Below are positions 2,575-46,623 of a stretch of DNA of 64,000 nucleotides, one piece after another. The translations under genes and the position numbers were made by a program. A model generated the notes under the pieces. It ran no database searches and had not been told where the DNA came from. It worked only from the letters and a program-made list of their open reading frames with translations. The DNA is taken from NCBI RefSeq assembly GCF_003334385.1, contig NZ_QOWN01000003.1; one strand, 5' to 3'. The first letter of the stretch is position 1. The number at the start of each line of letters is the position of its first letter. This stretch comes from Escherichia coli (GTDB lineage: Bacteria; Pseudomonadota; Gammaproteobacteria; Enterobacterales; Enterobacteriaceae).

Positions 2575-3513
2575 TTAGCGGCTCAACTGGCTAATCAGGG
2601 CAGGGACGACTTTGTAGATATCGCCCACCAGACCGTAGTCGGCATAGTTGAAGATTGGCGCATTTTTATCTTTATTGATGGCGACAATCACTTTTGCGCC
2701 GTTGCCGCCAACCATATGCTGGATCTGCCCGGAGATCCCCAGCGTCAGGTAGAGATCGGATTTCAGCAACACGCCGGAGACACCGATATAACGTTCACGC
2801 TCCATCCAGTTCTCGCCTTCGGCAATTGGACGTGAACAGCCGACTTCAGCATTCAGCACCGCCGCCAGTTCGTGGACCATTTTTAGGTCATCCTGCGCCG
2901 CCAGTCCACGACCGACGCCAACCACACGTTTTGCTTTGCTCAGGTCCACGCTGCTTGCGGCTTTCGCACGGCGTTCGCGACAGAGAATTTCATGACGCGG
3001 AGCAACATAAGGTACCGTTTCTGTCGGGCACTGATGAGAGGTATCACTGGTGCACGGTTCCTGAACACCGGGTGCAAGGGTAATGATCGCCAGCGGGCTG
3101 TTGATCTTTTCCTGAGCGAACGCTAACCCGCCATACATCCGGTGTTCGGCGCAAATGTGACCATCGACAATATCCACCGCCGTGGCATCGTTCACCAGCG
3201 CCGCATTCAGTTGCACACTTAACCGTGCTGCCAGCGCTTTACCACGTTTCGTCGCGGCCAACAGCAACATAGCGGGGTGTTTATCTTTCAGCAGGGCAGC
3301 AATGCTTTCGGCGTAATTTTCAGTGCGTTGCAGCGCGTCGTTTTGCGCAAGAACATAAAGACATTTTGGACCATAAGGCATAACTGCCTGCGCCTGGTCG
3401 GTATTTTGTACAATGGCATACACCTGTTGGCCCCATTGCTGAGCGCCGCCAAACAGTTCAGCATAACGTTCAGGATTATCGCTAAAGACCCAGACGCTGT
3501 TTAATTGACTCAT
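2575..3513 (-). CDS. ydiR: electron transfer flavoprotein, alpha-type subunit (FixB-like)
   Basis: 312-aa ORF between ydiQ and ydiS. Confidence 0.85.
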   Translation of the reverse strand: MSQLNSVWVFSDNPERYAELFGGAQQWGQQVYAIVQNTDQAQAVMPYGPKCLYVLAQNDALQRTENYAESIAALLKDKHPAMLLLAATKRGKALAARLSVQLNAALVNDATAVDIVDGHICAEHRMYGGLAFAQEKINSPLAIITLAPGVQEPCTSDTSHQCPTETVPYVAPRHEILCRERRAKAASSVDLSKAKRVVGVGRGLAAQDDLKMVHELAAVLNAEVGCSRPIAEGENWMERERYIGVSGVLLKSDLYLTLGISGQIQHMVGGNGAKVIVAINKDKNAPIFNYADYGLVGDIYKVVPALISQLSR

Positions 3514-13299: not shown

Positions 13300-13436
13300 C
13301 GTGTAATGGCTGCATGAAATAAACAATAAAATATAAATAACATTATCAGCCTGCTGACGGCTTGAAGAGAGTCACAGTATCTTGTGCAACATTATTGGAA
13401 AGAGTGAGGGGCGAGGTAGCGAAGCGGAAAAATGTT

Positions 13437-13542
13437 AAAAAAAAGCCCATCGTGGGAGATGGGCAAAGACTACACACAGCAATTCGTTGTTTCACTCAGG
13501 GGATTTCCATGCTTATAAATCAATATGTTGATTTATAACCGT
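13437..13542 (-). ncRNA. rprA: RprA small regulatory RNA (RpoS translational activator)
   Basis: Reverse complement reads ACGGTTATAAATCAACATATTGATTTATAAGCATGGAAATCCCC...CCCATCTCCCACGATGGGC followed by a T-run (terminator hairpin); matches RprA as recalled, between ydiL and ydiK. Confidence 0.85.
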
Positions 13543-18692: not shown

Positions 18693-18791
18693 CGTTGTCA
18701 CCAGAAAAGTGTGACGCATATTGCTTTTGGTCATTATCTGCACAGTAAACGGTGGTATACTGTGCAGGTCTTGTCTAAAAGCGAGGATGCT

Positions 18792-18980
18792 ATGTCTACT
18801 CAACTTGATCCCACCCAGCTGGCCATTGAATTTTTACGCCGTGACCAGAGCAATCTTTCACCTGCCCAATATCTCAAACGTCTGAAACAACTAGAACTTG
18901 AATTTGCTGACCTGCTTACTCTCTCTTCTGCTGAATTAAAAGAAGAAATCTACTTTGCCTGGCGTCTGGGCGTGCATTGA
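18792..18980 (+). CDS. ydiH: small protein of unknown function
   Basis: ORF track 18711..18980; start taken at ATG 18792 (MSTQLDPTQLAIEF...), about 62 aa. Confidence 0.6.
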   Translation: MSTQLDPTQLAIEFLRRDQSNLSPAQYLKRLKQLELEFADLLTLSSAELKEEIYFAWRLGVH

Positions 18981-19149
18981 TCCTGACTTAATGCCGCAAG
19001 TTCGCCAAATCGACCTGGATTAACCTCCGTCCAGGTTCGATGACCTTCTTAATACTGCTTATCTACCGCCTGATATTGTTCAAAAATAATACTAATCGCA
19101 GTTTGTGTTAAAACGGCGGGTTAGCTTTATGAGATTATTCTTATCGCCC

Positions 19150-19246
19150 CTTCAAGAGCTAAGCCACTGAGAGTGCCGGAGATAAGCGCCGGATGGGGTA
19201 GAAACCCTTAAGCCTGTGTCGCACAGACTTAAGGGTTTTCTTATTT
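19150..19246 (+). ncRNA. putative small RNA or terminator structure in the ydiH-sufA spacer (position consistent with RydB)
   Basis: Long imperfect hairpin AAACCCTTAAG...CTTAAGGGTTT (19202-19238) followed by a T-rich tract on the plus strand, about 220 nt from the ydiH stop. The boundaries are approximate, and the strand is inferred only from the terminator. Confidence 0.3.
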
Positions 19247-19467
19247 CTGAACGCTGCACTTTTTTACCTATCTCTTAAATAGTCATTTTCAATACAACTT
19301 TTTCTTTTTCATCACAGCCTTAATGCTCCTTAGATAATAACCATTATCTAACAATGAGATACCTAATTCTTAGCGTGCCTGTTAACCCACACATCAGGGT
19401 CTATGCTTATTAAAAGCAGGCAAAAAGCATGTTTTACGGTAAAGCCCCTGCGTTTGCTGGGTTGAAC

Positions 19468-19483
19468 TGATAATCATTATCAC
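19468..19483. promoter_or_regulatory. Fur box in the sufA promoter region
   Basis: TGATAATCATTATCAC matches the Fur consensus core (GATAATGATAATCATTATC), about 45-60 bp upstream of the sufA start codon. Confidence 0.6.
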
Positions 19484-19527
19484 TAACATGCTGTTATACG
19501 CTGAAAGCGATGAAGTGAGGTAAATCG

Positions 19528-19896
19528 ATGGACATGCATTCAGGAACCTTTAACCCACAAGATTTCGCCTGGCAAGGCTTAACGCTGACACCCGCAGCGG
19601 CGATACACATCCGTGAGCTGGTGGCAAAGCAGCCGGGTATGGTCGGCGTGCGCTTAGGCGTGAAGCAAACGGGCTGCGCGGGCTTTGGCTATGTGCTCGA
19701 CAGTGTTAGCGAGCCGGACAAAGACGATCTGCTGTTTGAACACGACGGCGCGAAGCTGTTTGTCCCGCTGCAAGCGATGCCGTTTATTGATGGCACGGAA
19801 GTCGATTTCGTTCGTGAAGGACTTAATCAGATATTCAAATTTCACAACCCTAAAGCCCAGAATGAATGTGGCTGTGGCGAAAGCTTTGGGGTATAG
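19528..19896 (+). CDS. sufA: Fe-S cluster assembly A-type carrier
   Basis: 122-aa ORF with a C-terminal CGCGESF motif; first gene of sufABCDSE. Confidence 0.92.
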
Positions 19897-36908: not shown

Positions 36909-37214
36909 TCAGGCGAGTTTTGCCTGATTGATTTGACTAAGTGGCTCATTGACATCGAAAACTTTGGCGACAACTTCCTCAACGCCGAGATTTTTCAGTC
37001 GGGCAGTATGTTTTTCCAGATAGGCAAGGGCGCTTTTTTCATCAGTGAAAAGGTAGATCCCACCGGCTTCGTGGTTCTTTTCACTTTCTGTCCATACCTT
37101 CCACAGAAAACCAGGTTCCTGATTAATCGACTCAGCAAGTGGTTTAAGCTGCTCAGCCATTGCGTCGCCAAATGGGCCATTAAAAGCAAAATGAAGTTGT
37201 AACAAAGTTGCCAT
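36909..37214 (-). CDS. ydhR: small putative monooxygenase-like protein
   Basis: 101-aa ORF next to the tRNA-Val pair. Confidence 0.75.
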
Positions 37215-37321
37215 AGCGATTCTCCTTCTGATAACGCATACGAAGACAGTGTAAATCTTTTAACGTATTGGATACAGAGAAGAAACAGAGGGAAAAAGGA
37301 GAAGACCAGATTAAGAAAATC

Positions 37322-37398
37322 TGGTGCGTCCGAGTGGACTCGAACCACCGACCCCCACCATGTCAAGGTGGTGCTCTAACCAACTGAGCTACGGACGC
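37322..37398 (-). tRNA. valW: tRNA-Val (GAC)
   Basis: Reverse complement reads GCGTCCGTAGCTCAGTTGGTTAGAGCACCACCTTGACATGGTGGGGGTCGGTGGTTCGAGTCCACTCGGACGCACCA: cloverleaf-compatible, GAC anticodon, 3' CCA. Confidence 0.93.
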
Positions 37399-37402
37399 AG
37401 GA

Positions 37403-37479
37403 TGGTGCGTTCAATTGGACTCGAACCAACGACCCCCACCATGTCAAGGTGGTGCTCTAACCAACTGAGCTATGAACGC
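37403..37479 (-). tRNA. valV: tRNA-Val (GAC)
   Basis: Reverse complement reads GCGTTCATAGCTCAGTTGGTTAGAGCACCACCTTGACATGGTGGGGGTCGTTGGTTCGAGTCCAATTGAACGCACCA; tandem copy 4 nt from valW. Confidence 0.93.
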
Positions 37480-46070: not shown

Positions 46071-46114
46071 TCCATTTCACTCCAGACCCTAACTTCAGCT
46101 CCTGCAAAATCGCA

Positions 46115-46130
46115 AGGTAAACGTTTGCCT
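46115..46130. promoter_or_regulatory. PUR-box-like operator in the purR leader
   Basis: AGGTAAACGTTTGCCT matches the PurR operator consensus ACGCAAACGTTTGCGT at 13 of 16 positions, about 45-60 bp upstream of the purR start codon. Confidence 0.5.
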
Positions 46131-46368
46131 TTACACACCTTACGCACAACAAAAGTGTTGCGGTACGCCGGAAAAACGACACGGAGCGTCAGGAAGGGGT
46201 CAATGGCCAGTACGCAAATAGTGTAAGCGTGGAATTTTGGCCGATCTTGACGAAAAGGGGAAGTGGTAAAAACACTTATCATTATAAATGACGGGAGATT
46301 TTTTCATCACAGTGTGTAAAAATGCGTAATATCACTTTTTGTGTGGTAATAAAAAAGGAGAAAACTTG

Positions 46369-46458
46369 ATGAGCACCGACCTTAAATTTTCACTGGTAAC
46401 AACGATTATCGTCCTCGGTTTGATCGTAGCCGTGGGTTTGACTGCCGCGCTGCACTGA
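46369..46458 (+). CDS. ynhF: 29-aa single-TM small membrane protein
   Basis: Not in the ORF track. ATG at 46369 preceded by Shine-Dalgarno AAGGAG (46355-46360); encodes MSTDLKFSLVTTIIVLGLIVAVGLTAALH; a stem-loop follows the stop. Matches the small protein YnhF as recalled. Confidence 0.6.
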   Translation: MSTDLKFSLVTTIIVLGLIVAVGLTAALH

Positions 46459-46623
46459 TTTCCTCTCGAGGGAGCGCGTTCTCCCTCGCATCTCCTTCCT
46501 GTTTGTTAGCAAAATGGCAAAAGTGTTTTCTCTTTTTGTTATTTTCATTTTTTTGTGATTGCTGTCATGCTTTCGCCACTTTAATGAATATCGCGTAATG
46601 ACGCGAAGAGGTGGAGATAAGGC

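Follow-up and report, generated by a model that had tools for sequence, protein, structure and literature searches.

rydB between ydiH and sufA

The window, the whole 64-kb stretch of Escherichia coli DNA that we analyzed, carries on its + strand ydiH (18792 to 18980) and, downstream of it, sufA (19528 to 19896), the first gene of the suf operon, both taken from the ORF list and the K-12 annotation. The spacer between them is 100% identical to that of E. coli K-12 MG1655 over 547 nt and is found in 5422 of 5426 complete E. coli genomes. When the whole window was scanned with Rfam, a match to RF00118 (rydB) was obtained at 19146 to 19206 (+), with 81.6 bits against a gathering score of 50, an E value of 9e-18, and model positions 1 to 61 of 61 covered. 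According to the identical alignment, the K-12 annotation of rydB (b4430, 68 nt; NC_000913.3, 1764713 to 1764780, minus strand) projects to 19134 to 19201 (+). rydB is thus positioned between ydiH and sufA, on a common strand with both.

The first-pass annotation, made from the letters of the sequence, had proposed a small-RNA gene here, possibly RydB. The Rfam score and the complete identity with the b4430-bearing MG1655 spacer identify the gene as RydB, and both the match and the projection place it on the + strand, as had been guessed. A comparison with Rfam and the annotated gene had also been suggested; it mapped rydB to this place and strand, but the hairpin that had drawn attention to the locus does not lie inside the annotated gene, as b4430 ends at 19201.

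Synteny of rydB with sufA is kept in Escherichia, Citrobacter, Salmonella, Silvania, Leclercia, and Pseudenterobacter, and the strand of rydB and its spacing relative to sufA are conserved in all of these genera. In most Citrobacter, ydiH and rydB are about 1.8 kb apart, and the rydB-sufA spacing is unchanged. The RNA of the window and RydB (RF00118; b4430; synonyms tpe7 and IS082) share locus, strand, sequence, and the helices P1, P2, and P3; the RNA itself is identical. The interval 19130 to 19248 (+) is the known, already catalogued rydB gene plus its own probable terminator. As a discovery it carries little weight, RydB having been annotated since 2001 and being an Rfam family.

In 23 listed RefSeq E. 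coli matches, the rydB interval bears no annotated feature, even though its Rfam score is far higher than the gathering score; in the curated MG1655 record it is annotated. Other Rfam matches in the window were RprA at 13435 to 13542 (−), with 118.5 bits, and STnc550 at 46071 to 46461 (+), with 396.5 bits. Two tRNA genes (−) lie at 37198 to 37479, together with an HPnc0260 "antisense" match (+) that overlaps one of them and probably just mirrors the tRNA sequence.

Promoter, core fold, and relatives of RydB

By comparison of related loci, we predicted an extended −10 promoter of rydB at 19130 to 19138 (+), composed of TG (19130 to 19131), one base, and GATTAT (19133 to 19138). In the comparative alignment, TGn-NAnnnT is found at the matching distance in 47 of the 56 class-A rydB copies listed (the classes are defined below), which come from many genera. 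A T at −7 from the first core G is present in 53 of these 56 copies, and the sequence farther upstream lacks conservation. The same motif also precedes rydB copies that are nowhere near ydiH. We infer that this conserved motif is the signature of a sigma-70 extended −10 promoter, which would start rydB at about G19146. The promoter geometry, together with the boundary of the Rfam model, accordingly makes G19146 the likely RydB 5' end; the K-12 annotation sets it at 19134. The supplementary files of Cappable-seq hold no entry in the rydB interval.

The RydB core, 19146 to 19206 (+), is the probable mature species of 61 nt, as judged from RF00118 and a Term-seq 3' end described below. RNAalifold, run on 48 diverse family members, reproduced the Rfam structure. 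The closing helix P1 (19146 to 19199) pairs 19146 to 19150 with 19195 to 19199; across the 48 members, changes on both sides that kept the pairing were found in 5 of its 5 pairs, and in the close clade in 2 of 5. P2 (19158 to 19174), given by both the Rfam consensus and RNAalifold, pairs GCU at 19158 to 19160 with AGU at 19172 to 19174, and its changes were one-sided only (G-U to G-C in 7 of 48). By eye, the alignment shows the segment inside P2 to be a variable-length hairpin in other family members. An alternative P2, in which CACU pairs with AGUG, fits E. coli and was rejected because it lacks support across the family, where RNAalifold and Rfam both give GCU/AGU. P3, taken from the Rfam consensus structure, is a hairpin at 19176 to 19192 of the form CCGG-A-G [AUAAG] C-G-CCGG. 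It does not vary in our data set because its 18-mer served as the search pattern, so that its invariance says nothing on covariation.

This 18-mer was searched in one genome per species and returned at least 120 stretches (L002 to L121). At least 107 core copies, the K-12 locus and the window included, passed the family test, mostly from Enterobacterales, and all 19 of the family copies that were tested scored above the Rfam rydB gathering score. The remaining 18-mer matches, in unrelated phyla, failed the family test and were discarded as chance. Class A, with the signature CCCCTTCAAGAGCTAAGCC, holds at least 57 copies including those of the window and K-12, and comprises the sufA-syntenic copies; class B, with the signature ACAGAGCTAAC(G/A)CC, holds at least 50 copies at other loci. 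At sequence level, the covariance-model match and the covariation show a core fold whose loops are unvarying across Enterobacterales.

More than one RydB-family copy per genome was seen in Pantoea, Erwinia, Rouxiella, Serratia, Raoultella, and one Enterobacter strain (among L010 to L121, examples are L020/L021, L028/L029, L033/L034, L044/L045, L055/L056, L061/L062, and L109/L110). The second flavour, ACAGAGCTAACGCC, bears the variable-length hairpin within P2. Its copies adjoin a pphA-like phosphatase near SraC/RyeA-SdsR, an osmC-like gene, or a LysR-type regulator, all named from their N-terminal sequences. We considered whether the family might be a cis-regulatory leader and rejected this, as the downstream genes (sufA, pphA-like, osmC-like, LysR-type) are unrelated and most copies have a terminator of their own.

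Two further features of the family were noticed. The loop regions of the core contain a direct repeat, GAGCUAAGCC and GAGAUAAGCG (GAG-N-UAAGC), at 19156 to 19165 and 19180 to 19189, which is invariant or nearly so across the family and could mark two similar binding sites. In the class-B copies of Sodalis, Acerihabitans, and related Enterobacterales (L006, L040, L041, L083, L088, and L115), a segment CAGAAAAGCGCATCGGCTACTTACCTCCTCG-N-AGAGGGAGTAC is conserved after the terminator, about 40 to 90 nt past the RydB-like core; in the two loci scanned (L041 and L115), the segment has no Rfam match at gathering score.

A strand-specific terminator-like hairpin past the core

Past the core, AAACCCTTAAG-CCTGTGTCGCACAGA-CTTAAGGGTTT followed by TCTTATTTCT is located at 19202 to 19248. 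Folding predicts a long hairpin at 19201 to 19239 (+), with a lower stem of 12 bp, a C/A mismatch, an upper stem of 5 bp, and a loop of 3 nt. Folded alone as 19198 to 19250, the hairpin has an energy of −22.0 kcal/mol, compared with −8.6 ± 2.6 in 200 dinucleotide-preserving shuffles (z −5.2), none of which folded as well. The U-rich tract of the putative terminator, UUUUCUUAUUUCU at 19236 to 19248 (+), contains 10 U in the 13 nt following G19235. On the transcribed strand, the 17-bp stem-loop is therefore followed by a U-rich tract, as in an intrinsic terminator. Read on the minus strand, the stem runs into GUUUCUACCCC and has no U-tail, and this makes the terminator shape strand-specific. The extended hairpin with a U-rich tail, as first perceived in the letters, is real, with 17 to 18 bp depending on the count.

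A simple terminator scan of 18700 to 19700 reported no terminator, this hairpin included, probably because the scan does not tolerate the C/A mismatch; a second, custom scan detected the hairpin. RepRanger lists rydB with a Rho-independent terminator.

The opposite strand offers another reading, namely a functional minus-strand transcript, either an antisense RNA or a 35-codon ORF at 19152 to 19259. A GTG-initiated ORF of 35 aa is indeed present, and the hairpin folds on that strand too. We regard this as barely credible: the Rfam match is confined to the + strand, Term-seq places its 3' end on the rydB strand, the minus-strand stem lacks a U-tail, and the promoter motif and the covariation suit the + strand.

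The hairpin starts 222 nt past the ydiH stop (ydiH ends at 18980), and the sufA ATG at 19528 follows the hairpin or its tail by 280 to 289 nt, which bears out the earlier estimates of about 220 and 280 nt. Closer to ydiH, 30 to 60 nt past its stop, we noticed a stem-loop UCGACCUGGAUU...GUCCAGGUUCGA at 19009 to 19041 (+), next to a weakly U-rich stretch; this is probably ydiH's own 3' structure. In the portion of the Term-seq tables of Adams et al. 2021 covered here, no 3' end is called for ydiH.

From its distance, the hairpin had been judged not to be the simple ydiH terminator. The contrary reading, that the hairpin terminates ydiH and that RydB arises as a processing product of the ydiH 3' UTR, draws on the common strand of ydiH, rydB, and the hairpin within 270 nt and on the lack of a called ydiH 3' end in that same portion of the tables. 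It is very unlikely, considering that the extended −10 motif stands directly before the core in 47 of the 56 class-A copies listed, also far from ydiH, that RydB-family copies occupy unrelated loci in other genera, that about 1.8 kb separates ydiH from rydB in most Citrobacter, and that ydiH has a stem-loop of its own at about 19009 to 19041. The last two observations uphold the earlier judgment.

We then compared the hairpin among relatives. Among the matches listed, it occurs in 26 distinct sequences from Escherichia, Citrobacter, Salmonella, Silvania, and Leclercia. Across the 18 pairs of the hairpin, pairing in these sequences amounts to 93.6%, and for 6 of the 18 both partners have changed. 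Pairing over the whole structure reaches 96.0% of cells, compared with 28 to 58% when the 3' partners are slid by 1 to 3 columns. The structure is thus conserved in orthologues while the sequence drifts. The distance from arm to arm ranges from 15 to 23 nt in the 26 sequences. This variable spacing, combined with the compensatory changes, fits an RNA hairpin better than a fixed-spacing protein site on DNA.

At the tract, the orthologues of Citrobacter and Salmonella have T runs of 5 to 7. Next to equivalent long hairpins, poor T-tracts are found in C. koseri and two other Citrobacter, which hints at possible selection on the hairpin for more than termination. In other genera, the equivalent place is occupied by unrelated hairpin-plus-T-run terminators. 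A terminator-like site within 125 nt is present in 49 of the 56 class-A copies listed, as opposed to 15 of 103 shuffled controls.

The inverted repeat could also be explained at the level of DNA, as a dispersed repeat, whether REP/BIME-like or the remnant of a MITE, or as a site bound by a suf regulator. The arms AACCCTTAAG/CTTAAGGGTT make a perfect palindrome, the position is just upstream of the suf control region, and in one soil E. coli an IS1397 lies at the hairpin base. This explanation is nonetheless highly improbable. Of 5426 complete E. coli genomes, 5380 carry the hairpin, which is single-copy, with a median of one place per genome. A search of the window for the arm pattern CCCTTAAG-N(8-30)-CTTAAGGG gave a single occurrence (expected, 0.00). 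The many copies of a REP/BIME dispersed repeat are thus missing, and this candidate was rejected. Further, the arm spacing of 15 to 23 nt varies, the upper stem covaries with the pairing kept, the T-run is strand-specific, and the rydB core always precedes the hairpin.

The IS1397 insertion was observed in the E. coli soil isolate SC434 (NZ_LR778142.1), where an IS1397-family IS3 element has inserted precisely at the boundary of the RydB core and the hairpin. The junctions, at 2070 to 2080 and 3495 to 3505 of the matched stretch (L122), correspond to window 19202 to 19205, with an apparent target duplication of AAAC (or AAC). This target, at the base of the 5' arm, coincides with the few nucleotides where mature RydB ends. 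IS1397 is known to insert into REP palindromes.

The 3' end of RydB and the fate of the hairpin

In the Term-seq data of Adams et al. 2021 (eLife 10:e62438), as far as the tables were covered, the sole 3' end called in the interval is 1764708 on the minus strand of K-12. Both the coordinate mapping and the 61-mer printed with this position identify it as C19206 of the window, which lies 7 nt past P1 and five to six nt into the hairpin's 5' arm. With a 5' end at G19146, the RNA would be 61 nt long. The scores of this end in two of the tables are 2.17e6 and 4.14e6, compared with 1.76e5 and 0.82e5 for the lpp terminator in the same two tables as covered here; the rydB score is 12 to 50 times that of lpp. 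A 3' end at the U-tract (about 1764668 to 1764672) is absent from the covered portion of these tables, which hold called peaks only, so that a minor peak could be missed. Rapid processing could hide a primary 3' end at the U-tract.

The hairpin had been taken for part of the small RNA, and this part of the earlier proposal fails: the K-12 annotation stops at 19201, one base ahead of the AAACCC arm, and the Rfam model and the Term-seq 3' end both stop at 19206. The 97 nt originally flagged are most of the mature RNA (19150 to 19206) plus a downstream terminator-like hairpin (19201 to 19248) that is absent from it. In Salmonella, rydB is annotated with 105 nt (Sittka et al. 2008), a length that requires the hairpin. 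The flagged hairpin thus lies outside the K-12 annotation and the Rfam model, and inside the Salmonella annotation.

Taken together, we consider it probable (about 0.78) that rydB is a self-contained unit, composed of a promoter, a 61-nt core, and an intrinsic terminator that shields the suf region and is later removed. The first 61 nt of the transcript would fold into a compact core of P1, the short P2, and P3. The hairpin (19201 to 19239) with the U-tract to 19248 would act as a Rho-independent terminator, giving a primary transcript of roughly 98 nt. It may block read-through from the highly active rydB, and from ydiH, into the suf control region and sufABCDSE. The terminator and insulator roles are suggested by anatomy, strand specificity, comparative data, and the conserved linkage to sufA. 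Downstream of the hairpin, about 190 nt upstream of sufA, we noticed a promoter-like ATCACA-16-GATAAT at 19311 to 19338 (+); this hexamer pair is listed as a constitutive RpoD promoter for sufABCDSE (Shimada et al. 2014).

After termination, the hairpin would be removed, leaving an accumulating RNA with the published Term-seq end at C19206. As a possible route, an endonuclease may cut the stem or its vicinity, after which 3'-to-5' trimming would proceed until it stalls a few nt from P1. Exonucleases that work 3' to 5' and halt at a stable structure would be expected to leave a 3' end 7 nt past P1. Most of them should, however, be blocked by the hairpin, given its energy of −22 kcal/mol, so that an endonucleolytic cut probably comes first; the need for such an enzyme for efficient removal weighs against the scheme.

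The position of the mature 3' end within the 5' arm is also what one would see if the hairpin were mainly a processing signal, whose stem is cut by a double-strand-specific nuclease such as RNase III to give 19206, with termination secondary or elsewhere. In line with this, lineages of divergent sequence keep a near-perfect hairpin of 17 to 18 bp, 2 to 9 nt past P1, some of them with weak T-tracts (C. koseri, L102; Citrobacter R56, L013; L066 and L064), and the lower stem AACCCTTAAG/CTTAAGGGTT is almost invariant over five genera, beyond what a terminator needs. We nevertheless find this alternative doubtful. Most genera bear ordinary short terminators 14 to 20 nt past the pattern and no long stems, and the hairpins of Escherichia, Citrobacter, and Salmonella have good T-runs. 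By the standards of E. coli RNase III substrates, a stem of 17 bp that contains a mismatch is short. In the RNase III data set searched (Gordon 2017, supplementary files), there is no rydB entry.

Between these two explanations lies a dual role, in which the hairpin would stop transcription before suf and also direct the cut in its stem that frees the 61-nt RydB, the latter being a processed protein- or ligand-binding RNA and not of the Hfq type. The invariant loops, the GAG-N-UAAGC repeat, the paralogues in Pantoea, Erwinia, Rouxiella, and Serratia, and the score of the 3' end are in keeping with it, and we put it forward only tentatively, with perhaps one chance in a few of being correct. 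If it were true, the near-invariant lower stem would be conserved because the lower stem specifies the cleavage.

The 5' end of RydB at 19147 to 19156 (CCCCUUCAAG) is nearly equal to the hairpin 5' arm at 19204 to 19212 (ACCCUUAAG). The hairpin 3' arm could alternatively pair with the RydB 5' end, at −8.1 kcal/mol compared with −16.4 kcal/mol for the hairpin arms. This likeness may have arisen by chance or by duplication, or it may reflect an alternative fold of the precursor.

The self-contained unit that we favor resembles known RNAs in part. RprA (13435 to 13542) and the canonical sRNA terminators likewise have a stable stem-loop and a U-run a few nt past the functional RNA, with structure conserved over sequence. 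The rydB stem is longer than that of canonical terminators (17 to 18 bp), and its foot is A/U-rich and pairs with part of the U-tract. In RprA and other Hfq-dependent sRNAs, the mature RNA retains the terminator and U-tail and binds Hfq, whereas the RydB 3' end lies inside the 5' arm. tRNA precursors, 6S RNA, and tmRNA mature by losing a 3' trailer with the terminator. Judging from general knowledge of such RNAs, RydB may resemble them in having a structured core, a closing helix, and a 3' end a few nt past that helix. Unlike these matured stable RNAs, RydB has to our knowledge no known nuclease, 3'-end motif (such as CCA), or protein partner.

With a 3' end at 19206, mature RydB does not keep the terminator and U-tail of an Hfq-dependent sRNA, and it is therefore more likely a structured, Hfq-independent RNA. 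In Salmonella Hfq co-immunoprecipitation, rydB was enriched 2.5-fold, compared with 7.7 to 49 for several well-known Hfq-associated sRNAs of the same table (rprA, 7.7; rydC, 49.0) (Sittka et al. 2008), and a published list includes RydB among Hfq-independent small RNAs. A study from 2024 describes RydB as without known targets or regulators. Papers citing earlier work, in the passages covered, give lowered rpoS expression upon overexpression as the sole RydB effect reported; a preprint reports phenotypes of RydB deletion and overexpression in persistence and biofilm. A mature RydB without a terminator or U-tail argues against a model of Hfq-dependent base pairing and may explain the lack of a direct target.

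The three descriptions of RydB conflict over the hairpin: the K-12 gene of 68 nt ends before it, the Rfam model of 61 nt ends inside it, and the Salmonella gene of 105 nt spans it. This matters when RydB is cloned, deleted, or overexpressed, as the abundant species stops at 19206. If only the annotated gene is deleted, a predicted strong terminator stays in place immediately ahead of the suf promoter region; if the entire unit is deleted, this terminator is lost. Such loss or retention of the terminator alone could alter suf expression and confound the phenotypes ascribed to RydB.
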